The translations under genes were made by a program, and so were the position numbers. A stretch of DNA of 64,000 bases from a virus (Duplodnaviria > Heunggongvirae > Uroviricota > Caudoviricetes), in the IMG/VR virus record IMGVR_UViG_2571042390_000001; one strand, written 5' to 3'. Below, piece by piece: positions 4,519 to 59,319 of the stretch. Numbering within the stretch: position 1 is the stretch's first letter; each line of letters starts with the position of its first letter. The notes below the pieces were generated by a model. It saw only the letters and a program-made list of their open reading frames with translations, made no database searches and was not told the origin of the DNA.

Positions 4519-6436
4519 CAATCCTTTACGAATTAATATTCAGTCTACTTTTGCTGATACGATCCCCGGCTATGTGCCAAGTCGCTGGTCTTCAGAAGAA
4601 TTAAGCGAAGATGACCTGATTTTTGAGGCGGCGACCTTAGAAGATATTGAGCTTGCCTATATGGGCAATGAAATTCTGGTTGTGTCTGACGAAGCTATGT
4701 TTGAGTCCATAACTACAACCAGAATTCGGTTAGCTCAAACAATGCGAGCTTTCGTCCGTGCGCTGAATCGTGGCCTGAATGGTACGAATATTATGGCAGG
4801 GACTGATGAAGCCGGGACCGATGAAAATGGACGTAATTGTATTGGTGGTGCGATTATCGGTCGTGTACGTCGGGTAGCTAATATCCCTGTTTTGACCGCG
4901 CAGATACCGCTTACTGACGGGCAGAGTACAAGCATAATTTTCCACTCTCCAACAGCTGACGGGGCAAAAATAAAGAGTAACGACGAGCTTGTTGCATTTC
5001 AGTTTTTACTTAATAAGCGTAACGTAACTCACGTTGTCGCCCCGATTGGTGGGAGAGATGTTTCTTTAAGCCAGGTATGCCAGGCGCTATCTAATTTGAT
5101 TGAGCGTAACAGCGAAAAATTTAAGAAAGCAAAAGAGCGCCAGGACAAAATGAAGGCAGATATTGAGAGTTATCTCAATGAAGCAGATAAACTGGCAGAA
5201 GAACGGTCAATAATGATTGATCAGGTGGACGTTGCGCAACGTGGGCTGACTGAAAAGCGTGCTGCTCTTACGGAGATGCAAAAAAAACTTGATGCCCAGA
5301 AAGCCATCAACGAGGAATTACAAGAAAAACGCGATAAATTGTTGTCTGCTAAAGGTGAAAAAACGAAGGAACGAGCGTTTAGTGACCAGCTGCGACATGT
5401 AAAACATAATCTTGCCATTGACGGAAAAACAGTGCTGGATAATGGCGCTGAAGTTAATTATATCACGTCCGGCAGTGACAATTTCGTTACGATAGTAGCA
5501 CCTGAAGGTAAATTCAGTATTGATGCCAGTGCTGTCAAAGGAGGCAGTTTGGCAGATGCTGCAACCAAATTACTTAAAGCCTACCGAGAGCATAACGCAG
5601 ATAAATATAAAGTTGATGTGTTACCAGGCCAGCAGGAAGACCCCGAACCACCACAGACAGACCCCGAGACGAACCCAGTATCACAACCAGAGAGCCAGGA
5701 TGTAGGTAAATACCACTATGCACTTCAATCTCGCCCGGCTGGTGTTGGTGCTGTGCCGGATGGAAATAAAGCCGTGCTTGATCGTCCTGACCAGGCTGAT
5801 CAGTATTACGAATATGCTCGTCACGGTATCATTACGTATGACCGTAAACTGACAGATGAAGAAGTCAGCCAGTACGAGTTGCTCTATCTTCCTGATGAAG
5901 ATGAGCTGAAAGATTTTGCAGGCCAATTGGTTGTGTCCAGCATGTCGAAACATATTGATGGCTATGTAGACCTGTTTGGCAGTGACCTGAAAACATTCAA
6001 GGCGCAAGTGAAAATTCTTTTCCGCAAAGCGTTTCCAAACGTGGCGTATCCACTTGGTGATGGGGAGAACCTTTTCATTATGGACGTGTATAACGCCCTT
6101 CAAAATCATTCAAGCGAAGTAAAAACAGAGCATGTGGTTGAGCCGGAATCACAACCACAACCAGCACCAGAACAGGAGCCGGAGCCAGAAGAAGCTGGTG
6201 AATCAGCAAGTGAAGCTGATCAGGAGGCAGATAAAGCACTGGAGTACCTGAAATCCGTGCCGGAGCAGTTTACATCCCGCGATCTGACGGTCATCAGTGC
6301 TGAACTTGATCATGTGCAGGAAGCAGCAAACGCTCTAATCAGCGCAGGTCGATACGACGAGAACGAAGCCACTGTTGGTGCAGCAGTTGACTACCTGATC
6401 AACATTCTGGCTGAAATTCAGCAGGGAGGTGCTTAA
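4511..6436 (+). CDS. Large virion-type protein, DarA-like by size and operon position
   Basis: About 642 aa; GGAGG RBS 7 nt upstream of ATG 4511; coiled-coil core and Pro/Glu-rich linkers (EDPEPPQTDPETNPVSQPESQ, EPESQPQPAPEQEPEPEE). Confidence 0.5.
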   Translation: MINNPLRINIQSTFADTIPGYVPSRWSSEELSEDDLIFEAATLEDIELAYMGNEILVVSDEAMFESITTTRIRLAQTMRAFVRALNRGLNGTNIMAGTDEAGTDENGRNCIGGAIIGRVRRVANIPVLTAQIPLTDGQSTSIIFHSPTADGAKIKSNDELVAFQFLLNKRNVTHVVAPIGGRDVSLSQVCQALSNLIERNSEKFKKAKERQDKMKADIESYLNEADKLAEERSIMIDQVDVAQRGLTEKRAALTEMQKKLDAQKAINEELQEKRDKLLSAKGEKTKERAFSDQLRHVKHNLAIDGKTVLDNGAEVNYITSGSDNFVTIVAPEGKFSIDASAVKGGSLADAATKLLKAYREHNADKYKVDVLPGQQEDPEPPQTDPETNPVSQPESQDVGKYHYALQSRPAGVGAVPDGNKAVLDRPDQADQYYEYARHGIITYDRKLTDEEVSQYELLYLPDEDELKDFAGQLVVSSMSKHIDGYVDLFGSDLKTFKAQVKILFRKAFPNVAYPLGDGENLFIMDVYNALQNHSSEVKTEHVVEPESQPQPAPEQEPEPEEAGESASEADQEADKALEYLKSVPEQFTSRDLTVISAELDHVQEAANALISAGRYDENEATVGAAVDYLINILAEIQQGGA

Positions 6437-6804
6437 TGACCATCTCTGTTTTAGACCGCCTGAAATTAGGTAAAGAGCTATCAGATCTAATGCAGGCGCA
6501 GAAAACGGCGCCAGTATTGCAACGCGTCACCATTGGTAAGCAGATTGTTGATGTGATGCTGAAATTGGGCTTGGGGACTGCCGCGCAACCGGCAGCGGAA
6601 CCGCAACAACAGACTGATCCTGTTGTAGATGAAGTTCCTAAGATAGTGACTGACTTCCTGGGCGGTGTGTTCACAAAGTCCACACAAATGGAATTTATTG
6701 ATGCGCTGCGTGGGATCTCAAACTATGTTGGCGAGTTCCTTACGTTGGAACAGGCAAAAGAGCAGACCATAAGCTGGGTGAAAGCCAACGGTTATGCAGG
6801 GTAA
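6436..6804 (+). CDS. Hypothetical protein (DdrA-like position)
   Basis: 122 aa; ATGA start/stop overlap with upstream gene. Confidence 0.5.
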   Translation: MTISVLDRLKLGKELSDLMQAQKTAPVLQRVTIGKQIVDVMLKLGLGTAAQPAAEPQQQTDPVVDEVPKIVTDFLGGVFTKSTQMEFIDALRGISNYVGEFLTLEQAKEQTISWVKANGYAG

Positions 6805-6807
6805 TCA

Positions 6808-6833
6808 AAGGGGCTGAAATGCCCCTTTCACTT
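6808..6833 (+). terminator. Intrinsic terminator or attenuator hairpin inside the operon
   Basis: aaggggc-tgaaat-gcccctt followed by T-rich tract. Confidence 0.45.
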
Positions 6834-6897
6834 TCCTGTAAGTCCATAAATCACACACTTTTTACACTTCCTGCTTTCTATGTAAGGGGAGTGTATT

Positions 6898-9800
6898 TTG
6901 AACAAGTCAGTTACTTCCGCGCTATCCGAAGCAGCAGACATTAACAGTGTTATTGCGCTGGTTTCTTCATTAGAGAGGCGAGAAACACGCCAGGGGCGCA
7001 GTAGTTACGTAGTCACCAGTAAAGGGGCAGAGGTAAAGACGGCTTTTAAGGTCGTTGATGCCAGCAGTCTGATCATTTCGAACAACCTTGACGGTACGAT
7101 TAATCCGGCCTTCCCGGAAGAACTCCAGCCACGTGACCGTACACGGCTATCAAGCAAACTCCAGGTTAACCGTATTGCCTCCAATTTACGCCCGGCACAA
7201 TTAACGGATTCCGGCATGAGCAGCCACGGAGCGCCGATAGTTGGTCCGGACAACGTTGTTGAATCCGGCAACGGAAGGAGCATGGGTATCTGGCGTGCCT
7301 ATGAGCAAGGGCAGGCGGATGAATATCGCCAGTACCTGATCGATCATGCAAAAGAGTTTGGTCTGAATCCTGACGACATTTCACAAATGTCTATGCCCGT
7401 ATTGGTGCGAGAAAGACTCACAGATGTAGACCGCGCACAATTTGCCCGCGATTCAAACATCAGCGATCTGCAAGAGATGGCTGCAAGTGAAAAAGCGTAT
7501 GCGGATGCGCAATTTCTCACTGAGAGCGTCATGGCGCTATTTAATCCTTCAGATGATGGAAATCTACTGGCGCGGTCCAATGATGCGTTTATTCGTGCGT
7601 TTTTGCGCGAAATAGGTGATACGGCGACGGCAGGTTTGCTTACTGCCGATGGGCGTCCAACGAAACAACTTATCGACCGCATCCAGAATGCAATTTTTGC
7701 CAAAGCGTACAAGGATGAAAGGCTTGTTCGGCTGGTGGCGGAAGAGCCAGATCCGGAAATGCGTAACATTCTTACCGCATTAAATACGGCAGCCAGCGAT
7801 TTTGCGCAAATGCAGTCGCTTTCAGGTGATGTTCACCATGACACGGTAACCGGACTGGTAGACGGTATAGAGCAATTGAATGGTCTGGATAAACAGGCTA
7901 TTGCCGCGCTACAGGAAGCAATTAACCTTGTTCGTGAAGCAAAAGATAACGGTCAGGCAGTAGAAGAGGTGATCGCACAGCGTGGATTGTTTGGAGATAG
8001 CACTCCGGAAGCAGAAGCGCTTGCTCTGTTTATTGTTGCCAACAACCGAAGCGCTAAGCGAATGGGGGCAGCTTTCAAGAAACTGGCGCAAAAAATTAAC
8101 GATGAACTTATTCACCAGCAACAAGCGTTAGGCGATATGTTCGGCGGCGGAGATGTCGATCTGCGTAGCATTTTATCTGCCGTTTCTGATGAAATTGAGG
8201 CTGAGTATGGCGAAGGTAAAGGGCTTAATTTCGCCATGTTTGAATCGGTTTCAGGAGAGGTCGAACCATACATTTCAAAGCTAATTGCTGATGCGACCAG
8301 CGTGGAGGACTTGATCCGAATCGTGAAGGTGTCAGAAAAAATTAAGGAGTCCGCAAAAAAAATAAAGCGCAATGTATTTTTGGAACTTGGTTTTTATATT
8401 CGCAATGTCACCGTTAATGAGATTAAGGAGTGGGCTAAACGTTATGGATACAGCGACGCTGTGTTAACAACGATGTTATTGTCTTATCAACGCAGCAATT
8501 TTTATGCTAACGCACTGCGTGACGCGATTGAAAAAGGAGATGAAGCTCCTTCGCTCGCAGATGAAAGAAATATTGATTGTGATATTGAAACGTTTTGCAA
8601 CATATCAGAAGAAGGCGTGCCCGCTGAACAATTTATACGTGTTTTACATAATGCAGCAAAACATATTCCTGATGACTTTAGTATTGATGAATTGCGCAAT
8701 GGTTGTCTTGTTTGGTTAGGTAACTATTTAAAATCTCCAGCGTCTATTGCAGAGAAAACAGCTTTAAGATTTAGAAAGGAAATGAATAAAGCTGGAAGCG
8801 CAGAAGAGATGGTGTGCATAATCCAAAATACTTTGAAGTTATTCAAAAAGAGCTTGCATAATATCGACGATATTATGGCGGCTGGTAGGAAAATAACAGC
8901 CAGTGTCGGAGTTAGCTCTGAACTAACGGCAGAGGAGATCGCTGATGCGTATATTGAGACACTTGTCAGGCTTAAGGAGATAGTGGAATTAGCAGAGCAT
9001 TCCTCATATTACGGAATCAAGGAGCGTGTTGACTTTACTATAGAACAAATCAATAAAGTTAGGTCAAATAAGGAAAAACTCACTGACTACCTTGCTGAGG
9101 TTTTGCACCAGAATGATCATGGGATTGGATATGATCTGAAAAAAATGCTTGTTTTTAATCTGGACATACCGGAAGACTTGCAAGCAGAACTATATGAAAT
9201 AGCTTCATTAACACGTGGACAAAAAGCCTATCCTAATGCGCTTGAAAATGTAGTACATAAAAAAGTCAGAGCCGCATTTGACATGATTCTTGAATCGTCA
9301 AATGTGTCACATGACCAGTCTAAGGAATGGAGTCGTGGGATTGCTATTTCTGATGAAGCAGAGCAGTTAAGTGGTCACGATAATGAAACTTTCTCCCGTA
9401 AAGCATACAGTATTCGCGAGACGATTGAAAAAGCCTATATTATTTCAGGAGGGACTTTATCTACATTAAAAAATATTAACCACAAGAACAATGTTCGTGC
9501 TTTTGCAAGTCGAAATGGGAATATAACAATTGATGCTAATAGTGATCACGAGCGTGTATTATGGCATGAAATAGGTCACCATATAGAACATTCAAATCCC
9601 CATCTATTGGAGAGGGCCAAAGCCTTCATTAAATCAAAAACTAACGGTAAAGTTTCTTATCATAATATTGGTAGCCGTGGCAGTGCTGAGTATTTGGTGC
9701 GAACCGACCTAAGTCATGGATATATGTCTAAAATTTATATGGAAAATACGGTAAGTTCTGTCAGCGGCAGATTTATATCAAAGCCACCTGCATTAAGCAA

Positions 9801-9939
9801 TTGCAGGGCGACTGAGATTTTTTCTATGGCCTTGCAGATGTATGCCGATCCGGAGCAGGCGACTAACTCTGTATTAAACAATGACGGCGTGCTGGAATTT
9901 TTCTTGGGATGTATGAAGGAGTTGCAAAATGAAGTATAG
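6898..9939 (+). CDS. Large protein with C-terminal HExxH zinc-metallopeptidase-like motif (DdrB-like position)
   Basis: 1013 aa; TTG start after RBS aagggga; motif ERVLWHEIGHHIEHSN near the C-terminus. Confidence 0.6.
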   Translation: MNKSVTSALSEAADINSVIALVSSLERRETRQGRSSYVVTSKGAEVKTAFKVVDASSLIISNNLDGTINPAFPEELQPRDRTRLSSKLQVNRIASNLRPAQLTDSGMSSHGAPIVGPDNVVESGNGRSMGIWRAYEQGQADEYRQYLIDHAKEFGLNPDDISQMSMPVLVRERLTDVDRAQFARDSNISDLQEMAASEKAYADAQFLTESVMALFNPSDDGNLLARSNDAFIRAFLREIGDTATAGLLTADGRPTKQLIDRIQNAIFAKAYKDERLVRLVAEEPDPEMRNILTALNTAASDFAQMQSLSGDVHHDTVTGLVDGIEQLNGLDKQAIAALQEAINLVREAKDNGQAVEEVIAQRGLFGDSTPEAEALALFIVANNRSAKRMGAAFKKLAQKINDELIHQQQALGDMFGGGDVDLRSILSAVSDEIEAEYGEGKGLNFAMFESVSGEVEPYISKLIADATSVEDLIRIVKVSEKIKESAKKIKRNVFLELGFYIRNVTVNEIKEWAKRYGYSDAVLTTMLLSYQRSNFYANALRDAIEKGDEAPSLADERNIDCDIETFCNISEEGVPAEQFIRVLHNAAKHIPDDFSIDELRNGCLVWLGNYLKSPASIAEKTALRFRKEMNKAGSAEEMVCIIQNTLKLFKKSLHNIDDIMAAGRKITASVGVSSELTAEEIADAYIETLVRLKEIVELAEHSSYYGIKERVDFTIEQINKVRSNKEKLTDYLAEVLHQNDHGIGYDLKKMLVFNLDIPEDLQAELYEIASLTRGQKAYPNALENVVHKKVRAAFDMILESSNVSHDQSKEWSRGIAISDEAEQLSGHDNETFSRKAYSIRETIEKAYIISGGTLSTLKNINHKNNVRAFASRNGNITIDANSDHERVLWHEIGHHIEHSNPHLLERAKAFIKSKTNGKVSYHNIGSRGSAEYLVRTDLSHGYMSKIYMENTVSSVSGRFISKPPALSNCRATEIFSMALQMYADPEQATNSVLNNDGVLEFFLGCMKELQNEV

Positions 9940-16426: not shown

Positions 16427-16452
16427 GCCCCGGCCTGGCCGGGGCTTTTTTC
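16427..16452. terminator. Bidirectional intrinsic terminator
   Basis: gccccgg-cctgg-ccggggc followed by TTTTTT. Confidence 0.7.
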
Positions 16453-16936
16453 ATGCCTCATTAGTTGAGGTTGCTGCGTCTCCGACTGGTAACAGGGCGG
16501 TATTGCGTGGTTCGCCAGCAGGCCAGCGATAGCCAGACACTCTTGATGTTGGGAATGCGCGAATATTAACCGCATCCCCCTGGTTCCCACCCAGGACAAG
16601 CAGATCGCCATTGGCGCGGCGTCCGACAACGAAGCCTACGTGCCCACCGCCTACGCGGGTAAATACAACGATACATCCGTATGCCGGTGTATCTAATTTC
16701 TCGCCCCAATCCAGATAGGATTTTGCCGACTCAAATCTTGTTGAGCGAATGCCTACACGTTCCAGCATTGCACCGACAAATGCTGCGCACCACGGCGTTT
16801 CATCGTCTTTAATTCCGCCGCGCTTGATGTCGCGCCAGAACTGAACGATTTCAGGGTTGTGTTTAGCGCCTTTTATTTCAGTCAAGCCAATGTGCTTACG
16901 GGCTTCAATTAGCCAGCGAGGTTCAATGTTTGCCAT
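16451..16936 (-). CDS. Putative papain-like (CHAP / NlpC-P60-like) peptidase
   Basis: 161 aa; candidate catalytic Cys in TPWCAAFVGAM and His in GGGHVGFVVG. Confidence 0.45.
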   Translation of the reverse strand: MANIEPRWLIEARKHIGLTEIKGAKHNPEIVQFWRDIKRGGIKDDETPWCAAFVGAMLERVGIRSTRFESAKSYLDWGEKLDTPAYGCIVVFTRVGGGHVGFVVGRRANGDLLVLGGNQGDAVNIRAFPTSRVSGYRWPAGEPRNTALLPVGDAATSTNEA

Positions 16937-17087
16937 ATTTTTCTCCCGGTCATGGGTTAATAAGTAGGCAAACTATGGGGAGTATGTGATTTTGACGGTA
17001 GTATCGTCCCCCTGAAAATAACATTCTCCATACCCTCTCAACCGTACCGCATAGCGGAATTTTTTACGGTTTAGAGGGGGAAATCCT

Positions 17088-20000
17088 TTGGACAAACTAC
17101 TTCATTCAATCAGTGAAGCCTCCAGCTTAGGCGAACTGATTGAAATTGTTAGTCGGTTGCATAAATTACGTGCTGTTGCGACCTTTGGCGTCAGGAAAGC
17201 CGATGGCGTCAGTATTCAGAAAACACGCCGGGCAGCAAACAATGCCGCAGTAAATCTTCTTAATTCCCTTCCGCCCGGCTTCGATGGGGCGAAATTAACT
17301 GACGAACAACGTCAGATTCTTGCTGGGTATACCGGTGAAGGCGGCCTGACAGATGGTGAGGGCAGCCAATACGAATACTACACGCCACAGTTTATGGCTG
17401 AAGGTATATGGGAGCTGTTTGCTGACTACGGTATTGATGGCGGTCACGTACTGGAACCATCAGCTGGCACGGGTATTTTCCAGGAGACAAAACGGCAGGG
17501 AATGATAATGACCAGCGCCGAGCTGTCTCCGATCTCCGGTCGAATCAACCAGCTGTTGCACCCGGAAGACGATGTGAACATTGGGGCGTTTGAGGCTCTG
17601 GCGGCGAAAGACGCAATGTATGACCACGCTGTTGGTAACGTACCGTTTGGCGAAGGCCGTTCCGGCGTTGCAGGGCTTGATCCGGCATATGCAAACGAGA
17701 AGAACGTTGGCAATTACTTTGTGCTGCGCACGATCGACAAGGTTAAACCTGGTGGGCTTATCGTATTGGTGGTGCCGAATGGCATGACTGATGGTACGAA
17801 ATACAAAAAATTGCGCGATAAAGTCAGCCGTAAAGCGGAATTTTTGGGCGCGCATCGTATGCCTTCCGGTACGTTCAGTGAATCAGGTACAGATACCGTG
17901 GTGGACGTATGGGTATTGCGTAAACACCCGGAAGCCTTCCTGGAGATGATCCCCGATACGGATGATTCGACGCTCAAATCGGCAAACGTCCTTTGGGTTA
18001 CCTTCCTCAAAGGGAAATGGTTTACAACCGAAGGGAAGCGATTTGTTTACGGCGACATGGAACGTACCAGCTTCCGCAATACCCTAGTGGTGAAAAAAGA
18101 CGGTCGTGTATCCAATGAGTCGATGAAAACCGCGCTATCTCGTCGCTTTGATAGTCGCATCAATTGGGATTTGCTCGGCGTAACTACTCAGGCATGGCAG
18201 GGCGCGAAAGTGGGCGATAAACGCCTTGTAGGCGGTATCTGGCATGAGTTTGATGGTCTGAAATGGGTTCAGGACACGACAACCAAATCCTCCGCGCTTG
18301 ATGTAAGTCGATATGGTGTTTCGACGTTTGGCGATCTGCAGATCGCGTTCCAGTCAACAAACGGGATTCTGGCTTTGTCATGGGACCAGATATCGGCGAT
18401 CGCGTCCGACTATCCATCGGTTGTCAGTGATGAAGTGGCAGCAATGATTCGCTTTGCTGGCAAGCAGCGAGAAAAAGACAGGGAGCGCGTTATGCGCGGT
18501 GCACTGATAGGTCAGTTGATCAACAAGGCACTTGATTTGCGTAACCTGGGGGTGAACGTTGATGACAAACTGGCAGATGCATCCCGCTTGGCGGCAGCAG
18601 AAGTTGCGAAGTATGGACCACCGCACGCGATTAAGCTGAATGGGCTTGCTGAAGCTGGCGCTAAAAACTGGATGACGTTCACTGGCAATGTGAAACAGGA
18701 TGGTTCCACTTCTGACCTTCTGGCAGGGCGACTTGATGTAACGGATGGTGCTGCCGGTATTGACTTTACGCGTCCTGAACAAGTGATAGCACATCTTTTT
18801 AGTGATGTAGCCCTTAATCCTATAACGCTGGGCGACTTTCGTGAGGCGTTTGCTGGTGAACTGCCAGAGGACGACGACGCGGTCCTTGAATACCTGGCGA
18901 AATTTGATGATATCGCTATTGATGGGTATGGCTGTCTGCTGCCGATGGACCGCGCCACCAGCGGCGATGTTGCAACCAAAACAGCACTGCTGGTGGGCTG
19001 GCGTGATGCGTCAACAGGTGAGCAGAAAGCGAACTTTGAGCGTCAGTTGGCGAAAATCGAAGAGAAACGCATTTTCACGCCACTAAATAAAGTCACCGTT
19101 AATCTGAATGCCCGCTGGCTGGATCGCCGCTTGATAAAAGAGTTCCTGGCAGAGCAGGGCTATGACGAGTTTAAGTACACTGAACCTGATCTGAAGGTCG
19201 TCGATGGCATTCTGGTATCTCCGGACGATTACGAAGGTAAGGACGGGGTATTTACCGGCTATCAGCTACGAACCGTAAACGGCAAAAACGGGAATGAGTT
19301 CAAGAAGGCCAACAATAAAGACGGCTTCCTGAACCAGTTAGAAAACTACCTGAACGGTGTTAAACCGCGTGGGCAGAACGCTAACGAGTACCTGGATAAA
19401 ATTGCTCAACTGGAAGTTAGCTTTAACGACTGGTTACGCACCCACCCGCAGGCGGATCAGATAGCCCGTGACTATAACGACGCATTCAATGGTTTCATTC
19501 CGTTCACACATTCTGACGCACCGCTTGGCCTGGAAGGGATTAGTGGAAAGCGCATTCCTCTGACTTATCAGAATGAAGAAGTTCGGCGCTTGTCAGAAGA
19601 TGGGCGTGGCATCATGGGATTTGGTACCGGGCTGGGTAAAACCACGACCGCGCTTGCGCTTGAGGCGTATAACTTCGAAACAGGTCGCACTAAACGCACG
19701 TGTATTGTTGTTCCGAAGGCGGTTTATCAGAACTGGTATCACGAGGCACAGAGTTTCTACAGTGCTGATGCCTTCGCCAATATGATGTTTATCGGTTTGG
19801 ATGAAGTTCGTGATGACAGCGGAAATATTCTGACCGCGCCGGTGCTTGATGAAAATGGCGAACCACGCCTCGACAGTAACGGGCAGCCTCTTACCAGAAA
19901 TGTTGTGAAAGAGTCCTCCAGCGCCGTTATCGTTCAGCGTATGAACATGATCCCGTCGTCAAATTGGCGAACGGTCATCATGACAAAAGAACAATTCGCG

Positions 20001-23000
20001 TCTATCCCGCTACGAGAAAAAACCATCGAGGAGAACTCACAGCAAGCTGTCTTTAATGCTGTGGAAATGGGGCGTCTTGACCTGGCGTCCGGTAAACACC
20101 GTGATGCGCAGAAGAAGAACAAGATTAAGGATCAGGCCGCGAATACCGGTACAACGAAGAAGCAGAATATCCCTTACTTTGAGGATATGAACTTCGATAG
20201 CGTGATTGCCGACGAGGGGCATAACTACCGCAACTCCTTTAATGCCGGGCGTGAAGCGGGACAACTGGCATATTTGCCTAACCCGGCAGTATCCAAGATG
20301 GCCCGCGACATGGCTGTAAAAGCTGCGTACATGATGAAACGCAACAACGGGCGTGGTGTAGTCATGCTGACGGCAACACCGCTGGTGAACAGTCCGATTG
20401 ATGCCTTCAACATGCTGTCTACTGTCATTCCGCAGGAAGAGTGGATGCGTATGGGCATCATTACGCCTGATGATTTCGTTCGTGTGTTTGGCAAAACAGC
20501 CACAGTTCAGGTCCAGAAAATTTCCGGGGAAGTGGAAGAGAAGCAGGGGCTGGTGGGCTTCCAGAACCTTGACGGCCTGCGTGGTATTTTCCATCGTTGG
20601 ACCACTCTGAAGACTGCTGCAGATGTCGGAGCGACGGTTAAAATTCCCGACATCATCGAGAACACCTTGCAGATCCCGATGACAGGGGAGCAGGAGACTG
20701 CTTATGAAGAGCTTCGTAAGCGTGCTCAGGAGTTAAGTCGCAATGATGAGCTGACAGTCGATGAAAACGGGCATATCACTAACGACAAACCGGATGATTT
20801 CATCTTCTCCATCATCCGTGACATGGATAAGGTTGCTATAGACCCGGATCTGTATGCCAGTGCGATTACATTCCAGTTCCCCGTTGAGCTTGCAGACCAG
20901 GTAAAAGCTATTGCTGATGCCTTGCCAAAAGTAGCTGGCGGTAAAGTGGCAGATGATGTTGATGAGGCCGAGGAAGACGGCGCTGGCGGGCTGGTCAGTA
21001 CGCGTACCAGCAAGGTAGTGAAGACCGCTTTTAGTGAACATCCGACGCATGTTGAAATACGTGCCAGCATTGAACTGGAAGCTGAAATACTGAAGGCCAT
21101 TGCGGCTGCCGGCATTGATATGCAGCAGGTGTCGCACCCCATCCCGCCGAAGTATGCCGCGCTGATCGAAAATCTTCGTGAAGGTCTGAAGAACGGTAAG
21201 CAGATCGTCTTTATTGATGAAAAAGCCCAGCACCAGAAGCTGCGCCGTATTATCGCCAGTGCACTGCAAATGCCGGAGCAGGAGATTGGCATTATCAATG
21301 CGACGACAGTTAGCCAGGCTGGTGGCATCAAGCTGAAGAAGGTGAATAAGCCGACCGAACCTACTCCAAACAAAAACGGTGAATACAAAGAAGGGGCATG
21401 GGAAACCTACTACAGCAAACTTGCCCAATATGAGGATTATCTCTCCGCTAAAAATGATGCTGGCCTTGAGGGCATGGAAGGTATTGCCGCCGACTATAAC
21501 GAAGGTCGCACGCGCATCATAATCTGTAACAAGAAGGCTGAAGTAGGTATTAACCTGCACATCGGGACAACCGATATCCACCACCTGACACTACCCTGGA
21601 CACCAGCCAGTATCGACCAACGAAATGGGCGCGGTGCGCGCGTAGGTTCACCGCAAGAAAAGGTCAATGTTCACTACTATTGTGGCAAAGGCACATTCGA
21701 CGACTTCCGTCTGGATACGCTGAAACGTAAGAAAGACTGGATCAAGATGGTGATGACATCCGACATGTCAGAGATCGCCAATGGTGATGCGGATGATGCT
21801 GATGAACGCGCCATTATGCTGGCGGCAAACCCGGAAGAACGCCGCGCAATCATGGCTCGCCAGGCGCAAGAGCGTGAAGAACGTCTGAAACTGAAAGCAC
21901 AGCGCGAGGCCAACAATGCTCTCGATATCTACCTGAAAGCGGCAAACGCCGCCGGAAAAGATATCGGCATGATGGAGACAGAACTGAAAAGCGCGATGGA
22001 ACAGATAGAGTATTACCAGCGCAATCTTGACGACCTGATAAAAGCGGGTACGAACAGGAATGGGCAAAAATACGCGCTTGAGCAGTTGAGTAGCTACAGA
22101 AAACGTGCGCGGGTGCTGCGGTTTGCGATCACCAGGGCAAAAGACGCGGATACCATAATGAAACGCTCTCGTGGTGATGTGGAGCGCGCTATTAAGTCTG
22201 GTGTGCTGGATATCAGTATCGATGTTATTCAGAACCCACAGGAATATATGCGCACTGACAAGAATATCCTGTTGCATAAAGGTAGTTATTACCGTGCAGT
22301 CATTGATGATCGCGAAACAACAGCGATTGTCCGGGTGGAAAAAATTGACGGTGAAAAAGCACAATACCTCTGCCGTATCGCCTGGCTGGATAGAGCAAGT
22401 CGTTACGCTCGAGCACCGGGGTCAATCGTTACATTGCCGTTTGACTCTGTGATTGAAGCGGTAACTTTTGAAGAGGGGGTAGCTGAATCGCGCGCAACGG
22501 CTGCGCGTGGTGTTCAGTGCCACCAGCTATCAACAATACTTACTCGCGATCAGTTCTATGATGCTATTCGCAATGGGGTAATGAATGTTATTGCTGGTAA
22601 ACCTGGTAATGCATGGGGCGGTGGGTCAGCTATTAAATACTGGGCATATCGCACAGATGATGGTCAGATCGCGCTGTCATCGGCCTATGATGGCGTGATA
22701 GGCCAAAAAATCGGGCGAGCATCGGATATAGCACCTGAGCGATGGATATATCCTGATGGCAACGACGAGGCGCTGAAGCGTGAAGTGGCAAAAATACAAG
22801 CCAGTGATAACCCGCTGAATATCGTGGACGGCGAGGGATTCCTCCAGGCATTGTATGGGTATGATTACACCCAGGGAATGCAGGCATGGGGCGCACAGGC
22901 AACGATGGATGATGTTGCCCATGAGTTCGAAAACTGGATGGCTGGGCGTGGTCTGTCAGGTCGTTCGCTTAATAAAGTCACTTCTGAAGATATTCTTAGC

Positions 23001-23924
23001 TTGTTCCGCAAACCGTCCGGAGAAGGTCTGGAATCATTCTGGAGGACCGTGCTGGCATACCGTTTATTCCAGGGCAGGATGAAAGCCTTTAGCAATATCG
23101 ATGATATTGAACGGATGTTTAATCAGGTCAAGATCGCGAAAATTAAGGCGAAGATCGAAAAAACACGTTCTGCGCTGGTGGCCTGGCGCGATGCATTGTT
23201 TGAGCAATATAAATCACTCAGTGATGCAGATGGATGGGCGGCATTGGAACAGCTGGCGAATAATGGGGTAGATGGAGCGAAACTCGCCATTGTTCAGGCT
23301 GATAACCCCCTGGAATCACCGGCAGCACAGTGGATTAAGGTGGGGGCTGTCATCAATGCATTTGATGAAAAACACATTAGTAAGGACGATTTTGCTGATG
23401 CTGTTTCTGTTAATCGCCTGGTAGAAATGGCTACCCGCCGCGCCCGTGAGTTGAAAGACGGCGACTATGTGAATGAGTTGCCGGATACGCTCAAATCGGC
23501 AACGTGGCAGGACTATGTATCGCTGAAAAACGGCGGGGCCACTGAATCAGAGATCGCGGAAAGGCTTGAGCAGGCTGAAAGCAAAAGAGAAGAGCAGGCG
23601 GCAGTGGCTGAAGCCAGAGCTGATGAAGCGGCGAATGATGACTATATCATTGTGGTTAATGATAAGCCGATTCGCGCTAAGGCGCGTGTTCGCGGGCGCT
23701 GGTGGAGCGTCAGCGAGGACGTTGGCGCGGTTTATCTCATTGCCGACCAACCAGGTTCCTCGACAATACGGAACGCCAAAGACGCGATTAAGAAGATTGG
23801 CGGACGTTTCTGGAATTTTGAAGCAAACCCGGTTGCTGATGTGAACTTTGACCGTCCTGCATGGATGGTATCTACGCGTTACTCGGTAGATGAACTGCGT
23901 AAAATAATCGCCGATGCGGCCTAA
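17088..23924 (+). CDS. darB: Giant DarB-like protein: N6-adenine methyltransferase domain plus SF2 helicase domain
   Basis: 2278 aa; MTase motif I VLEPSAGTGIF and motif IV NVPFGE; helicase Walker A GFGTGLGKTTTA, DEGH box VIADEGHNYRN, later QRNGRGARVG; TTG start after RBS. Confidence 0.8.
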   Translation: MDKLLHSISEASSLGELIEIVSRLHKLRAVATFGVRKADGVSIQKTRRAANNAAVNLLNSLPPGFDGAKLTDEQRQILAGYTGEGGLTDGEGSQYEYYTPQFMAEGIWELFADYGIDGGHVLEPSAGTGIFQETKRQGMIMTSAELSPISGRINQLLHPEDDVNIGAFEALAAKDAMYDHAVGNVPFGEGRSGVAGLDPAYANEKNVGNYFVLRTIDKVKPGGLIVLVVPNGMTDGTKYKKLRDKVSRKAEFLGAHRMPSGTFSESGTDTVVDVWVLRKHPEAFLEMIPDTDDSTLKSANVLWVTFLKGKWFTTEGKRFVYGDMERTSFRNTLVVKKDGRVSNESMKTALSRRFDSRINWDLLGVTTQAWQGAKVGDKRLVGGIWHEFDGLKWVQDTTTKSSALDVSRYGVSTFGDLQIAFQSTNGILALSWDQISAIASDYPSVVSDEVAAMIRFAGKQREKDRERVMRGALIGQLINKALDLRNLGVNVDDKLADASRLAAAEVAKYGPPHAIKLNGLAEAGAKNWMTFTGNVKQDGSTSDLLAGRLDVTDGAAGIDFTRPEQVIAHLFSDVALNPITLGDFREAFAGELPEDDDAVLEYLAKFDDIAIDGYGCLLPMDRATSGDVATKTALLVGWRDASTGEQKANFERQLAKIEEKRIFTPLNKVTVNLNARWLDRRLIKEFLAEQGYDEFKYTEPDLKVVDGILVSPDDYEGKDGVFTGYQLRTVNGKNGNEFKKANNKDGFLNQLENYLNGVKPRGQNANEYLDKIAQLEVSFNDWLRTHPQADQIARDYNDAFNGFIPFTHSDAPLGLEGISGKRIPLTYQNEEVRRLSEDGRGIMGFGTGLGKTTTALALEAYNFETGRTKRTCIVVPKAVYQNWYHEAQSFYSADAFANMMFIGLDEVRDDSGNILTAPVLDENGEPRLDSNGQPLTRNVVKESSSAVIVQRMNMIPSSNWRTVIMTKEQFASIPLREKTIEENSQQAVFNAVEMGRLDLASGKHRDAQKKNKIKDQAANTGTTKKQNIPYFEDMNFDSVIADEGHNYRNSFNAGREAGQLAYLPNPAVSKMARDMAVKAAYMMKRNNGRGVVMLTATPLVNSPIDAFNMLSTVIPQEEWMRMGIITPDDFVRVFGKTATVQVQKISGEVEEKQGLVGFQNLDGLRGIFHRWTTLKTAADVGATVKIPDIIENTLQIPMTGEQETAYEELRKRAQELSRNDELTVDENGHITNDKPDDFIFSIIRDMDKVAIDPDLYASAITFQFPVELADQVKAIADALPKVAGGKVADDVDEAEEDGAGGLVSTRTSKVVKTAFSEHPTHVEIRASIELEAEILKAIAAAGIDMQQVSHPIPPKYAALIENLREGLKNGKQIVFIDEKAQHQKLRRIIASALQMPEQEIGIINATTVSQAGGIKLKKVNKPTEPTPNKNGEYKEGAWETYYSKLAQYEDYLSAKNDAGLEGMEGIAADYNEGRTRIIICNKKAEVGINLHIGTTDIHHLTLPWTPASIDQRNGRGARVGSPQEKVNVHYYCGKGTFDDFRLDTLKRKKDWIKMVMTSDMSEIANGDADDADERAIMLAANPEERRAIMARQAQEREERLKLKAQREANNALDIYLKAANAAGKDIGMMETELKSAMEQIEYYQRNLDDLIKAGTNRNGQKYALEQLSSYRKRARVLRFAITRAKDADTIMKRSRGDVERAIKSGVLDISIDVIQNPQEYMRTDKNILLHKGSYYRAVIDDRETTAIVRVEKIDGEKAQYLCRIAWLDRASRYARAPGSIVTLPFDSVIEAVTFEEGVAESRATAARGVQCHQLSTILTRDQFYDAIRNGVMNVIAGKPGNAWGGGSAIKYWAYRTDDGQIALSSAYDGVIGQKIGRASDIAPERWIYPDGNDEALKREVAKIQASDNPLNIVDGEGFLQALYGYDYTQGMQAWGAQATMDDVAHEFENWMAGRGLSGRSLNKVTSEDILSLFRKPSGEGLESFWRTVLAYRLFQGRMKAFSNIDDIERMFNQVKIAKIKAKIEKTRSALVAWRDALFEQYKSLSDADGWAALEQLANNGVDGAKLAIVQADNPLESPAAQWIKVGAVINAFDEKHISKDDFADAVSVNRLVEMATRRARELKDGDYVNELPDTLKSATWQDYVSLKNGGATESEIAERLEQAESKREEQAAVAEARADEAANDDYIIVVNDKPIRAKARVRGRWWSVSEDVGAVYLIADQPGSSTIRNAKDAIKKIGGRFWNFEANPVADVNFDRPAWMVSTRYSVDELRKIIADAA

Positions 23925-23960
23925 CAGATAAGGAGCGGCCCCAACTGGGGCCGAATTTGA

Positions 23961-24395
23961 ATGACGACATTAATTGACACTGTAAAACCGACGGAATCCT
24001 ACCTTGAGGACATTTTGCCGCAGGCGCTCAATGGCAGGAGTGAAGAGGCGTTTCTGGATGCATATCTGAATGGCATGGTGGAAAGGCTGAAACGAGATCC
24101 ACAGCTTTATCACCTTTATGGGCCGTGGTGGCCTGCGCTTAAAACGTTATTGCTGGAGCGCGGCGACATATCATTTGGACAAGTTGTAGATAGTGATGTG
24201 GCAGAGATCTACAAAATGAGTCGCCCGGCGCTTACGGTTTTGGCTGGGCATCTGTATTCGAGCGATCGCCTGGAAAATGACGCGGTATACAATCCTGTTC
24301 ATGCTCTGGAAGTCGCACCTTATGCCGATGATACAGAGCCATACGTGTACACAAGTTACGACGAGTCTATAGAGAAATATCGAATTATGGGGTAG
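23961..24395 (+). CDS. Hypothetical protein
   Basis: 144 aa, follows darB-like gene with RBS aaggag. Confidence 0.5.
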   Translation: MTTLIDTVKPTESYLEDILPQALNGRSEEAFLDAYLNGMVERLKRDPQLYHLYGPWWPALKTLLLERGDISFGQVVDSDVAEIYKMSRPALTVLAGHLYSSDRLENDAVYNPVHALEVAPYADDTEPYVYTSYDESIEKYRIMG

Positions 24396-24397
24396 CC

Positions 24398-24658
24398 ATG
24401 CGAAAGAATCGTAGGTTTACGGTCGAAGACCTAAAGGAATATTCCATATCGAAGGGGTATATCCTTGAGTTCCACCGATACAAGAAGGTTTTTACGCTGC
24501 GAAAAGCAGAAAACCCTGCGAACTGGAGCTGGATATACTTTCCTCACACCGATGATAAGTTGGTAGAACTTGTTGATGATTTAACCTATGAAGGTTGGTT
24601 GATCGCAATCGACAAGACAATCAAAGAATTATCCGAACAGGATAAAATAACCCTTTAA
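24398..24658 (+). CDS. Hypothetical protein
   Basis: 86 aa, 2 bp after upstream stop. Confidence 0.5.
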   Translation: MRKNRRFTVEDLKEYSISKGYILEFHRYKKVFTLRKAENPANWSWIYFPHTDDKLVELVDDLTYEGWLIAIDKTIKELSEQDKITL

Positions 24659-24794
24659 AAATAACAGGTTGGGTAAATGCCATGCGATTTACCCTCCTTG
24701 TTGATTAAGGTCACTCTTTACTCTAAAAGCAAATCCGACCTGTTGCATATAGACCATCCTTGAGTAGTATCTCTCTTGTTTTACAAATCTAACG

Positions 24795-25289
24795 TTGTTG
24801 TTATTATTTCGCATATTTACTATCAATGGGTGTGTTAGAAAAATAGCGCGAAAGAGAAGGCGTCGCAGTGAATATTCTGAAACATCCCCACATGCCGCAG
24901 CTCTTAGAGAACTGGAGAAAAACCCAGATCTAATCAAAAGGAACCATGAGCATTACGAGCAGGTTCGCGTCCTGGACTGGATGTATCGCAATATGCGTTA
25001 TGTGTATGAGCATACTCACGCCACTCCAAACGGTGGCCTGCGAGGCATAAGGACGGCAATAAAAATGGTGGCAGAGGGCCAAAAGAAGGGATATCCCGAT
25101 CTTTCTATAGACCTTGCTTGTGGGGGATACCACGGAATGCGCATTGAGATGAAACATGGGAGAAATCGCCTGACTCCCGAACAACTCGTCTGGATGACTC
25201 GCCTCACAGAAGCCGGTTACTACTGCTTTGAGGCGCGCAGTGCCGCTGAAGCCATAAAAGCTATCACGGAGTATGTTTGTCTTGATTAA
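24795..25289 (+). CDS. VRR-NUC domain nuclease-like protein; start codon uncertain
   Basis: Segments EHYEQVRVLDWM, KGYPDLSIDLACGGYHGMRIEMKHG and LTPEQLVWMTRL fit the PD-(D/E)xK VRR-NUC pattern; the operator motif lies inside the annotated 5' end. Confidence 0.55.
   Translation: MLLLFRIFTINGCVRKIARKRRRRSEYSETSPHAAALRELEKNPDLIKRNHEHYEQVRVLDWMYRNMRYVYEHTHATPNGGLRGIRTAIKMVAEGQKKGYPDLSIDLACGGYHGMRIEMKHGRNRLTPEQLVWMTRLTEAGYYCFEARSAAEAIKAITEYVCLD
24831..24846. promoter_or_regulatory. Operator-like motif
   Basis: tgtgttagaaaaatag in an AT-rich stretch upstream of the VRR-NUC domain. Confidence 0.45.
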
Positions 25290-28357: not shown

Positions 28358-28432
28358 GATGGTGTAGCTCAGCGGTAGAGCAGTTGGCTGTTAACCAACT
28401 GGTCGGTGGTTCGAATCCACCCACCATCGCCA
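28358..28432 (+). tRNA. tRNA-Asn (anticodon GTT)
   Basis: 75 nt with CCA; acceptor gatggtg/caccatc, T-arm ggtgg-ttcgaat-ccacc, anticodon loop ctGTTaa. Confidence 0.85.
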
Positions 28433-28437
28433 ATTTA

Positions 28438-28524
28438 GGGGAGTTAGTCCGTAGGGGTAGCGGGGTAGACTGTAAATCTACTGTCATTGCGACTCGGGTG
28501 GTTCGACTCCATCACTCCCCACCA
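28438..28524 (+). tRNA. tRNA-Tyr (anticodon GTA), type II with long variable arm
   Basis: 87 nt with CCA; acceptor ggggagt/actcccc, anticodon arm gtaga-ctGTAaa-tctac, variable arm gtcattgcgac, T-loop ttcgact. Confidence 0.7.
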
Positions 28525-28528
28525 AATT

Positions 28529-28604
28529 GCCGGTTTAGCTCAGTTGGTAGAGCAGTCGCTTTGTAAGCGAATGGTCAGCGGTTCGATCCCGTTAACCGGC
28601 ACCA
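28529..28604 (+). tRNA. tRNA-Thr (anticodon TGT)
   Basis: 76 nt with CCA; acceptor gccggtt/aaccggc, anticodon loop ttTGTaa, T-loop ttcgatc. Confidence 0.85.
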
Positions 28605-29058
28605 ACACAACAGGTAAGAGCATTTGTAGAGTTCGACTCTCTACCGTGGGCTTTTTCCCGCGATGCGAGCCATAAATGCTCTTACCGTTGTGATGAAGTG
28701 CAGCTCTTTGAAGCAACCAGAAGATAAGCATCTGGCTTCACAACATAAACCGCAGGAACGACCAATAAACGGTAGTCCGTATGGAGAACACCCCGTTGAG
28801 GAAGAGGTCTGGCCGGAACCGTAACCGGCACTACAACGTTGAGAACACTGGCGTAACGGGGTCATATCCCAATCTACGAATAAATGTTGCGTTGCAGCGT
28901 GACAACCAGTGTTCTCAACATTGTGGTGAATGCGCAGGCTGATGCGCGAAAGACATTGCAGCTATTGCGGAAAAGAGCTGTTCGGCGGGGCAATTAAACG
29001 CCCGTGAGAGTCTGAAATAACCGCAAGCCGGAGATCAGCACCGGTCGCCACAATAACG

Positions 29059-29145
29059 GGAGAGTAGGGAGCATGGTGCTCAAGCGGTCTTGAAAACCGT
29101 CCCATTGCGCAAGCGATGATGGTTCGATTCCATTACTCTCCGCCA
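29059..29145 (+). tRNA. tRNA-Ser (anticodon TGA), type II
   Basis: 87 nt with CCA; acceptor ggagagt/actctcc, anticodon arm gcggt-ctTGAaa-accgt, T-loop ttcgatt. Confidence 0.7.
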
Positions 29146-29436
29146 GTGCAACATTAAGGGTATTTGGCTAATTAAGCGAATGCCGGAAGCAGAACCGGAT
29201 CACCAAATGCGTACAGGCGTCATCGCCGCCCAGTCAGCCAAATGCTCTTACCATTGCGGTGAATGCGGCTAAGCGCACGCGGAACAGTTAAAACAGTAAA
29301 GGTGGTCTTTTTACTGGCGTAACGAGAATCCATAAGTGATCCGGCGTTAATTGTTAACTGGTTAACGTCACCGGGAGGCGCCCGGCACCGCAACCTAACA
29401 GCAATGGCGTTTTGTCTTAAAAGGTGGCTGCAAGTG

Positions 29437-29565
29437 ATGGATTTTTGGGCGTTTGCCGATAAAAACCCGGAGTGGACATTATTGTTTCTGCTGGTGGTTG
29501 CATACGGGGTAGAGCAAGCGGCAAAAGCCTTACGCGGTTCTGGCAAAAAGCGTAAGCGTAATTAA
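29437..29565 (+). CDS. Possible small membrane peptide (42 aa)
   Basis: RBS aaggtgg then ATG; MDFWAFADKNPEWTLLFLLVVAYGVEQAAKALRGSGKKRKRN; hydrophobic core with basic tail; sits between tRNA genes. Confidence 0.25.
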   Translation: MDFWAFADKNPEWTLLFLLVVAYGVEQAAKALRGSGKKRKRN

Positions 29566-29574
29566 CAGTAATCT

Positions 29575-29650
29575 GGCCCTTTAGCTCAGTGGTTAGAGCG
29601 GGCGACTCATAATCGCACGGTCACCGGTTCAAGTCCGGTAGGGGCCACCA
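29575..29650 (+). tRNA. tRNA with CAT anticodon (Met or lysidine-modified Ile)
   Basis: 76 nt with CCA; acceptor ggccctt/aggggcc, anticodon loop ctCATaa, T-arm accgg-ttcaagt-ccggt. Confidence 0.85.
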
Positions 29651-30102: not shown

Positions 30103-30678
30103 ATGTTAATGGCGAACGATAACGCATATACAGAAGAAGATCTCATTTTGAGTGACTTCATAGGGAAGCGTGAACGCTGGACCCAAAAGCGAGAGGAAAT
30201 TTACGCCTCATTAGTTCGCAAAGGCGTCAATATCGAAACCGCACAGAGCGGCGATATGACAGTGGTAAGCGTTGGATTGCACGGTGTAAGCGTGTCAGCA
30301 ATCAATCATGAGCCATACGTTGCGTTATCCGAGTCAATGGTAAGGTTAGTTAAGTTCCTGAAATACACAGAAGCGAATAATGTAATCATTGGCAAAAAGA
30401 ATATCCCTTTTTCCTCGGCTTTTTACTGGATGATGAAAGGGCTTGATGCCCGGCGGACATCATGGCCCAAAGGGAGCTATATATCGATGTTCCGTGGCAG
30501 TATTGGCAGCAAAGAAAAGCTCTTCGAATTCTTGCCGGAAGAGGCATTCGATATTGTGGAAGGGTGCGATGTGATGGTGATGCCTCGCCTGGTAATGATG
30601 AATGGGGATTTACAGGCGCAGACAGACTGGTTTGCAACTGGTGTGGATATTATCGCGACTGACTGGGAGGCTTTCTGA
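30103..30678 (+). CDS. Hypothetical protein with C-terminal DUF2829-like domain
   Basis: 191 aa; C-terminal part FSSAFYWMMKGLDARRTSWPKG ... QTDWFATGVDIIATDWEAF. Confidence 0.55.
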   Translation: MLMANDNAYTEEDLILSDFIGKRERWTQKREEIYASLVRKGVNIETAQSGDMTVVSVGLHGVSVSAINHEPYVALSESMVRLVKFLKYTEANNVIIGKKNIPFSSAFYWMMKGLDARRTSWPKGSYISMFRGSIGSKEKLFEFLPEEAFDIVEGCDVMVMPRLVMMNGDLQAQTDWFATGVDIIATDWEAF

Positions 30679-31178: not shown

Positions 31179-31571
31179 ATGGAACAAATCAGCAGCGCAG
31201 AAATTGCGGATATCATGATCAGGGCTGACTGCTATCTGACAGTCACTGAAATTACCACTCTCGCCAAAGAAAAATACCCTCATCTCCATGTTTCACGAGT
31301 AAGTGTAACTAACATCATTCGTCATTTTGTTCGTTCAAGCAGGGCAATCTGTGAGCTTGATGATCGTGTTTACCCACGAAAATACTGGTTGCATGGCCTG
31401 AACGGATATCAGTTCAAGGTGCGTGGGCGAACCCCTGAATATGGCAGTTTACTGGTTAAAAACTGTAGCAGGAAATCAGTCGAACAGGCGCGAAAAGAGC
31501 AACGAGAGCTGGTGGACATGGCGAATAAGCTGTGGAATGCCGCCGTTAAAAAGCGTGGTGTTGCTTTATGA
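31179..31571 (+). CDS. Hypothetical protein in the position P1 uses for the late-promoter activator Lpa
   Basis: 130 aa; operator-like motif upstream; immediately precedes pacA; homology not verified. Confidence 0.4.
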   Translation: MEQISSAEIADIMIRADCYLTVTEITTLAKEKYPHLHVSRVSVTNIIRHFVRSSRAICELDDRVYPRKYWLHGLNGYQFKVRGRTPEYGSLLVKNCSRKSVEQARKEQRELVDMANKLWNAAVKKRGVAL

Positions 31572-59046: not shown

Positions 59047-59319
59047 TCACATTAGTAGCTTTGTTAACTCCCTCAATACCAGGTAGAAGAGTAACAAAAA
59101 CACTGACGTGGATACCTGCTGAGTTAAAGAAGCACTAATAAATTTATTCAATAAATCAATCAGCTTATTAAAAATATTCATCTTTTCGAATCCATTCGAT
59201 CGGTAAATAACACCCAGCTCACTATCGAGCTGGTCCACGCCTTAAGATTAATGAAAGTCACTTGTTGACAGTCAATAAATTCCAGGGTGGCGAAAAAACT
59301 CTGTCTATACGGATAGTGC

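Follow-up and report, generated by a model that had tools for sequence, protein, structure and literature searches.

A 64,000-nucleotide stretch of DNA from a virus of the Caudoviricetes (IMG/VR record IMGVR_UViG_2571042390_000001), here called the window, carries a gene that, judging by its sequence, is very probably the ortholog of the phage P1 gene darB in the lineage of Escherichia phage D6, and that is carried on a D6-like E. coli phage-plasmid. Phage D6 is a P1-like myovirus whose lysogenic state is a plasmid. A preliminary description, drawn from the DNA letters, had read the gene as a DarB-like fusion of methyltransferase and helicase, and alignment with P1 DarB bears this out. The BLASTP alignment is collinear from residue 1 and scores 1523 bits with 949 identities, and the 43.5% identity across residues 1-1935 exceeds what generic motifs would produce. 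Beyond residue 1935 significant similarity ends, and what is left is a weak match of 27% over the last ~130 residues. Every P1-type DarB in the phage collection shows the same picture, with ~43% identity over an aligned span of 1-1935, and P1 DarB (2255 amino acids, aa) has the same five Pfam hits as the window protein. By these alignments, the window gene is a true ortholog of P1 DarB, of the D6 lineage. Its main features are the following.

17088-23924 (+): darB ortholog (D6 type), 2278 aa; from the listing of open reading frames (ORFs), translation, P1 BLASTP, Pfam and the D6 record.
17074-17080 (+): Shine-Dalgarno sequence GAGGGGG, 7 nucleotides (nt) 5' of the darB TTG; from sequence reading.
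17088-17177 (+): DarB residues 1-30, positional counterpart of the P1 capsid-targeting sequence, poorly conserved.
17358-17987 (+): methyltransferase domain, EcoKI/TaqI-like N6-adenine, residues 91-300; from Pfam N6_Mtase, PDB sequence match and motifs.
17448-17480 (+): VLEPSAGTGIF, aa 121-131; motif position in the darB translation.
17637-17654 (+): NVPFGE, aa 184-189; motif position in the darB translation.
19548-21887 (+): SNF2-type SF2 helicase/translocase, residues 821-1600; from Pfam SNF2-rel_dom, ResIII and Helicase_C.
DarB aa 844-853: helicase motif I, GFGTGLGKTT.
DarB aa 1042-1045: helicase motif II, DEGH.
DarB aa 1095-1098: helicase motif III, TATP.
DarB aa 1511-1520: helicase motif VI, QRNGRGARVG.
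22893-23921 (+): DarB tail, residues 1936-2278, a helical region and a conserved ~90-aa terminal domain (FW-F..NPV..PAW).

The coordinates of the single ORF are exactly those of the ORF listing, and its start codon is TTG. That start is supported as credible because GAGGGGG lies 7 nt upstream, the P1 alignment runs from residue 1 and the D6 record has the identical start; the aligned amino termini read MDKL in the window and MNKL in P1. Measured against the diverged relative L007, the ratio of nonsynonymous to synonymous substitution rates (dN/dS) is 0.087 for the gene overall, so that darB is not a chance ORF.

The modules of the protein follow one another as an N-terminal targeting-signal region, an LPD36-like segment, the N6-adenine methyltransferase, the SNF2-type SF2 helicase and a divergent C-terminal region. 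Both motifs on which the preliminary description had built, VLEPSAGTGIF and NVPFGE, are present in the translation, and the SF2 helicase set is represented by motifs I, II, III and VI. Above the gathering cutoffs, Pfam finds N6_Mtase (aa 151-281; 20.7 bits versus a cutoff of 20.4), SNF2-rel_dom (aa 840-964; E = 2.9e-12), ResIII and Helicase_C (aa 1464-1520), whereas even at E<=1 it finds nothing for aa 305-821 or aa 1601-2278. The methyltransferase domain contains EYYTP (aa 96-100), the SAM-binding motif I as LEPSAGTG and motif IV as NVPF, and its region has as top PDB sequence match 7eew, the methyltransferase subunit of a Type I restriction-modification (R-M) system. The helicase is made up of an N-lobe (821-1220), a helical insert (1221-1460) and a C-lobe (1461-1600) with INO80 as top PDB match. 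GxGU, TP-cap and NPP(Y/F)-type features are those described for the DarB-type "methylase-helicase dyad" (PMC5512222).

Constraint along the protein was mapped in an alignment of three lineages, namely the window protein, P1 DarB and P0024 (2289 aa, 53% identical to the window protein). Identities of the window protein, segment by segment, are as follows.

Residues 1-30: 27% to P1, 47% to P0024.
Residues 31-90, LPD36-like: 65% to P1, 65% to P0024.
Residues 91-300, methyltransferase: 56% to P1, 74% to P0024.
Residues 301-820: 38% to P1, 55% to P0024.
Residues 821-1220, SNF2 N-lobe: 60% to P1, 72% to P0024.
Residues 1221-1460, insert: 43% to P1, 60% to P0024.
Residues 1461-1600, helicase C-lobe: 63% to P1, 70% to P0024.
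Residues 1601-1935: 22% to P1, 37% to P0024.
Residues 1936-2278, tail: 17% to P1, 27% to P0024.

The catalytic regions are the best conserved, with 56-63% identity to P1, and the enzymatic regions have a dN/dS of ~0.065 against L007. Invariant across the three lineages, which are 40-53% identical overall, are GY(T/S)GEGG, EYYTP, LEPSAGTG, GNVPFG, GFGTGLGKTT, ADEGHNYRN, LTATP and QRNGRGARVG. The first 30 and the last ~680 residues evolve fastest. Residues 1-30 have 73% amino acid identity to L007 at a synonymous divergence (dS) of 0.61, while dS is ~0.1 for the rest of the gene. A mosaic boundary lies in this area, where the initial ~30 darB codons and the DNA upstream (17000-17250) are ~80% identical to L007.

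The tail is rare in sequence databases. An exhaustive HMMER search of 1.84 billion representative proteins yielded 16 matches, several of them frameshifted junk, and the real ones have the ~90-residue terminal domain with the pattern FW-F..NPV..PAW in common; a word-indexed search returned near-identical E. coli fragments alone. An AlphaFold2 (AF2) model of the tail, built from a 5-sequence alignment, has a predicted local distance difference test score (pLDDT) of 70.5 and consists of a helical region and a small beta-rich domain. A fold assignment was tried and dropped, the model having no PDB match at E<=1e-3.

What such a protein might do is best framed by what has been reported for P1, where DarB belongs to the Dar (defence against restriction) system, which guards incoming DNA from host restriction; the P1 virion contains ~40-45 copies of DarB (PMC9024508; PMC12810830). 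The P1 Dar proteins are incorporated in a fixed order with DarB last (PMC12810830), the N-terminal 30 residues of DarB suffice for capsid targeting, with residues 6-10 critical, and the P1 Dar proteins carry no consensus signal (PMC9024508). Dar acts solely in cis, on the DNA of the same capsid (PMC12707154). By orthology with P1, D6-type DarB would be made in lytic growth and loaded into the prohead at the end of the Dar pathway, in which Hdf and DarA would be followed by DdrA and DdrB, and these by DarB and Ulx. The N-terminal targeting segment would serve for loading, which would also depend on Ulx, encoded by the adjacent gene. The protein would then be ejected together with the DNA and protect it in cis from Type I restriction of the EcoKI/EcoBI kind. 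As the window contains 8 EcoKI and 11 EcoBI sites, its DNA is a target of these enzymes and needs protection. We had also considered the absence of such sites within darB itself, which is meaningless, as fewer than one of each is expected in 6.8 kb by our estimate.

As to how protection might work, we tentatively propose, at somewhat less than even confidence, that the SNF2-type motor moves along the incoming duplex and the N6-adenine methyltransferase modifies this DNA, that Type I complexes may in addition be occluded or displaced by the moving enzyme, and that both activities are required. A translocating-methylase model has been put forward for the methyltransferase-SNF2 dyad (PMC5512222), and we favour an enzymatic requirement because the catalytic motifs have stayed unchanged in lineages whose overall identity is only 40-53%.

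Several points weigh against this picture. The targeting segment, residues 1-30, is only 27% identical to P1, and the critical P1 residues 6-10, MGVFR, correspond to HSISE in the window. The last ~340 residues are essentially unrelated in sequence to P1, so that target range or partners may differ. Upstream of darB we found no convincing promoter and no late promoter of the P1 type. The literature searched contained no virion proteomics or plating data for D6-type phages, and packaging, ejection and protection are carried over from P1. A study of 2024 called the mechanism of DarB undefined, and traced the anti-restriction effect of plasmid-borne darB to a DNA-sequence artefact that depends on Chi and EcoKI sites and acts via restriction alleviation; darB variants mutated in predicted catalytic residues kept the plasmid effect (PMC11109961). 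Because the plasmid effect is artefactual and is seen with catalytic-residue variants too, there is no direct evidence for methylation as the protective act.

An alternative, which we consider unlikely though less so than the others weighed here, accepts the orthology and makes protection non-enzymatic: ~40 packaged copies would coat or accompany the entering DNA and occlude Type I recognition or translocation, with the domains serving for binding or ejection. The cis-only behaviour of Dar led to just such a physical-obstruction hypothesis (PMC12707154), the copy number of ~40-45 per virion (PMC9024508; PMC12810830) would suit a coat, and a mechanism described as undefined (PMC11109961) accommodates it. 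A passive coat, however, has no need of motif I, NVPF, Walker A, DEGH, TATP and motif VI, all of which are invariant in the three lineages, and the strong conservation of the catalytic regions, the highest in DarB, together with their dN/dS of ~0.065 is what one expects of retained activity. Extremely improbable, in our judgement, is a protein that is not anti-restriction at all and is instead the fused methyltransferase-helicase of an R-M or defence system excluding other phages (Type ISP, Type III-like, DISARM or BREX-related). It is true that the methyltransferase domain is closest to Type I HsdM (7eew), that the helicase has weak NCBIfam matches to DISARM DrmD, DpdE and a Dnd restriction enzyme, and that a Pfam ResIII domain is present. 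Yet the best of the NCBIfam scores, for DrmD, is 44.5 bits against a cutoff of 610 bits, and the remaining cutoffs are missed by similar margins. A nuclease or specificity domain turned up nowhere in the 2278 aa, next to the gene lie ulx and genes for virion morphogenesis with no R-M partners among them, and the homology with P1 DarB is collinear over 1935 residues.

DarB does not stand alone in the window. Downstream of it lies the gene of its P1 partner Ulx, and orthologs of the other four Dar proteins are found elsewhere.

23961-24395 (+): ulx ortholog, 144 aa; 46% identity to P1 Ulx, E 7e-45; D6_14 annotation.
3898-4518 (+): hdf ortholog; tblastn with P1 Hdf, 40% identity, E 5e-28; Pfam DarA_N.
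4472-6436 (+): darA ortholog; tblastn with P1 DarA, 39% identity, E 4e-127; Pfam DarA_N and DarA_C; counted from the first possible start, so that the true start may be slightly downstream.
6436-6804 (+): ddrA ortholog; tblastn with P1 DdrA, 33% identity, E 1e-19.
6898-9939 (+): ddrB ortholog, full length, 1013 aa; tblastn with P1 DdrB residues 2-993, 44% identity; Pfam ddrB-ParB, 1e-41.

By homology, then, all six known Dar components are encoded in the window. The tblastn matches of the four more distant partners span 3907-9930; as in P1, lydA and lydB lie upstream of them. The window also encodes the portal, the prohead protease, the late-gene activator Lpa and the remainder of a P1-like virion module.

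The preliminary description had noted two small genes of unknown function after darB, which might be accessory components. This does not apply to the first of them, ulx, in so far as its function is concerned: its product matches phrog_1629, "Ulx-like anti-restriction" (2.3e-59), and as an Ulx ortholog it is a known DarB accessory. Its dN/dS against L007 is 0.07. Deletion of ulx is reportedly followed by a darB-like phenotype in P1. P1 Ulx is virion-associated and is listed as an aid to DarB localization (PMC9024508).

Between the two genes lies a structured element.

23930-23953 (+): AAGGAG followed by a 7-bp GC hairpin (CGGCCCC-AACT-GGGGCCG), after the stop codon of darB and ahead of the ulx ATG; folding free energy (dG) -16.2 kcal/mol, z -3.7.

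The same layout, with the darB stop followed by AGGAG, a GC hairpin of 6-8 bp and a tetraloop, another 7-9 nt and the ulx ATG, recurs in four lineages (window 23930-23963, L007:8533-8566, L006:180-212 and, for P1, L002:11324-11357). The four differ in stem sequence, with dG values of -14.7 to -17.1 kcal/mol. Sequences were folded one by one, and column-wise covariation counting was dropped, because the MAFFT alignment placed P1 out of register. With the hairpin folded, the distance from the ulx Shine-Dalgarno sequence to the AUG shrinks from 25-27 nt to 8-9 nt. This arrangement suggests a structure-dependent ribosome-binding site, as in T4 genes 38 and 25, or an element of mRNA stability.

For the second small gene an accessory role finds no support. 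Its product is unrelated to P1 Lxc, and the gene belongs to a different mosaic segment from darB-ulx.

24398-24658 (+): orf13 (D6 orf13), 86-aa orphan gene in the position of P1 lxc.

The product of orf13 belongs to phrog_6844 (unknown function) and has no Pfam or NCBIfam match. At E<=100, BLASTP aligned nothing with P1 Lxc (82 aa; also called Bof, a co-factor of the C1 repressor). An AF2 model of the orf13 protein (pLDDT 70) has an alpha-beta4-alpha arrangement; when it was compared with BFVD, a viral structure library, no match reached E<=1e-3 and the matches listed did not include Lxc, where the presence of Lxc in BFVD is itself unverified. We therefore dropped the idea of a cryptic Lxc analog, for which there was neither sequence similarity nor a BFVD match at that threshold. 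Across public genomes and metagenomes there are six protein clusters of orf13, four from Escherichia and two from metagenome reads, and D6 is the only deposited phage that has it; in these collections orf13 is confined to Escherichia D6-like elements.

Selection indicates a real gene: dN/dS against L007 is 0.21, the mark of purifying selection. In every relative examined, the most diverged one included, orf13 lies directly 3' of ulx. Its history differs from that of darB and ulx. The proteins of the window and L007 are 71% identical (dS 0.87) for orf13 and 98.6% identical (dS 0.09) for the adjacent ulx, and DNA identity, 92-100% over darB-ulx, drops to 71-88% where orf13 begins and stays in that range into the 5' part of pmgM. 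Because of this shift in identity and dS, we place orf13 in a different recombination segment, not co-inherited with darB-ulx. The pmgM-like "morphogenetic" gene (24795-25289, +) contains a VRR-NUC nuclease domain (27 bits versus a 23.8-bit cutoff).

Most likely, orf13 is a lineage-specific passenger that is co-transcribed with darB and ulx and lies outside the core Dar set. That it is instead a functional part of the D6-type DarB module, as a packaging adaptor or chaperone working with Ulx or as a non-homologous replacement of Lxc, seems rather improbable to us. Such a role would fit its start 2 nt past the ulx stop and ahead of a terminator-like hairpin, its constant adjacency to ulx, the purifying selection, and its lxc-like position and size (86 versus 82 aa). 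It sits badly with the lack of Lxc sequence similarity and of a BFVD fold match at E<=1e-3, with the difference in mosaic segment (dS 0.87 versus 0.09), and with the P1-type phages, which have functional DarB and Ulx but no orf13. A bolder proposal holds that D6-type DarB has been retargeted, its rapidly diverging C-terminal ~340-680 residues, N-terminal signal and orf13 making up a specificity and loading module with orf13 as a seventh Dar component; we regard this as quite doubtful. If it were true, the set of host defences countered by D6-type DarB might differ from that of P1 DarB and include, for instance, further Type I families or BREX.

Signals for expression of darB, ulx and orf13 were sought on both flanks.

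16992-17019 (+): weak sigma-70-like candidate promoter (TTGACG, 16 nt, GAAAAT), 5' of darB; consensus scan, 9/12 matches.
24671-24694 (+): terminator-like hairpin 3' of orf13; dG -17.7 kcal/mol, z -2.8; T-tract weak (TCCTTGTTGA).

Only 36 nt separate darB from ulx and 2 nt ulx from orf13, with no strong promoter in between, and because of these short gaps a single transcription unit is plausible; the hairpin at 24671-24694 likely ends it. The co-transcription of the two small genes with darB, as the preliminary description had it, is thus plausible. Sigma-70-like sites are fewer in the darB region than in shuffled sequence. For late promoters we used the pattern AAGTNAYTN-N4-TANNNT, which is based on three promoters annotated in P1 (LPlyz, LPpro and LPdar) and has a single exact match in the window (59245-59263, -). 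A P1-type, Lpa-dependent late promoter for darB was rejected, since matches with one mismatch number 10 against 6.7 expected, which is no enrichment, and none lies upstream of darB. A de novo search for k-mers shared by the 5' regions of five late operons brought up no convincing candidate. The late promoters of the D6 type probably rely on an upstream element different from that of P1. The late-gene activator Lpa itself is well conserved (31179-31571, +; PF25716, 5e-57).

A few other features of the window deserve mention. Chi sites (GCTGGTGG) are strongly enriched, with 38 in the window (26 on the + and 12 on the - strand) versus ~1.7 expected in all, or ~0.8 per strand, and seven of them lie within darB (18962, 18989, 20549, 21318, 22527, 23174 and 23698). 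P1 darB has 11, and Chi in cloned darB fragments leads to the artefactual restriction alleviation (PMC11109961). A 191-aa ORF at 30103-30678 (+), annotated as hypothetical in D6 (orf6), has a Tad2-like Thoeris anti-defence domain (PF11195, 39.3 bits versus a 25-bit cutoff) and may be a second counter-defence gene of the element. ARAGORN places five tRNA genes at 28358-29650 (+), namely Asn-GTT, Tyr-GTA, Thr-TGT, Ser-TGA and Met-CAT; the D6 record has Asn, Thr and Ser tRNAs, annotated on the strand opposite to the ARAGORN call. The gene upstream of darB encodes a peptidoglycan hydrolase.

16451-16936 (-): CHAP-domain peptidoglycan hydrolase gene, divergent from darB.

In L007-L009 an extra 165-aa ORF, lacking in the window, lies between the CHAP gene and darB.

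The DNA at 17000-25000 is 99.2% identical to phage D6 (MF356679.1 / NC_050154.1), and the closest overall match of the window is the E. coli plasmid NZ_CP117014.1 (99.6-99.7% identity). By these comparisons the window is a D6-like phage-plasmid, ~99% identical to D6 but distinct from D6 itself, because its ddrB is full length (1013 aa) and D6 has a ddrB-like ORF of 454 aa. Two small hypothetical ORFs are annotated beside the latter, and in D6 ddrB may be truncated or rearranged. The assignments of DarB and Ulx are not new, as they already stand in the public GenBank annotation of D6: in the record MF356679.1, D6_15 (ASR76325.1) is "defense against restriction; similar to P1 gene darB" and D6_14 is "similar to P1 gene ulx", with the third gene given as hypothetical orf13. 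Elsewhere the PGAP annotation (the Prokaryotic Genome Annotation Pipeline) usually names D6-type DarB just "SNF2-related protein". The darB-ulx-orf13 block, at a coverage of at least 80%, is present in 93 of 5426 complete E. coli genomes (~1.7%), and, counting all block matches, 367 of 373 places are on plasmids.

The archetype of the DarB family has been under study since 1987, and the comparative value of the present gene, a known member of a known family, is modest. It helps to dissect DarB into constrained parts, which are all the methyltransferase and SNF2 catalytic motifs and the ~90-aa domain at the extreme C-terminus, and variable ones, which are the N-terminal targeting segment, the post-helicase region and the tail. 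This constraint map offers concrete targets for mutagenesis. As D6-type darB-ulx nearly always resides on phage-plasmids, elements able to carry resistance genes, it is also relevant for the crossing of restriction barriers.

Among known systems, D6 is of course the nearest: its D6_15 differs from the window gene by 11 aa across 2278 residues and by 59 nt, and ulx and orf13 follow in the same order, whereas three tRNA genes are annotated in D6 compared with five in the window. Farther away are the polyvalent-protein methyltransferase-SF2 helicase dyads of Bcep22-like podophages and Serratia phage Parlo (Iyer et al. 2017, PMC5512222), which like DarB join LPD36, an EcoKI/TaqI-like adenine methyltransferase and a SWI2/SNF2 ATPase. 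Their similarity to the window protein is limited to ~200-300 residues (27-37% identity in the methyltransferase region), they are 3700-4600 aa long with the dyad embedded beside a lytic transglycosylase and other domains, and, unlike the D6 type, they come without Ulx and the other Dar partners. P1 and P7 lie in between. They differ from the window in the last ~340 DarB residues, where similarity is undetectable except for the weak match over the terminal ~130 aa, in the capsid-targeting residues 1-30 (27% identical), in the gene after ulx (lxc in P1, the unrelated 86-aa ORF here) and in the 5' neighbour of darB (prt and pro in P1, the divergent CHAP-domain gene here). With the D6 type P1/P7 DarB shares, in the same order, the LPD36-like segment with GYTGEGG, EYYTP, motifs I and IV of the N6-adenine methyltransferase and motifs I, II, III and VI of the SNF2-type helicase; and in P1, as in the window, ulx stands directly 3' of darB behind the same Shine-Dalgarno and hairpin arrangement, while hdf, darA, ddrA and ddrB lie elsewhere in the genome, on the backbone of a P1-like myovirus phage-plasmid.

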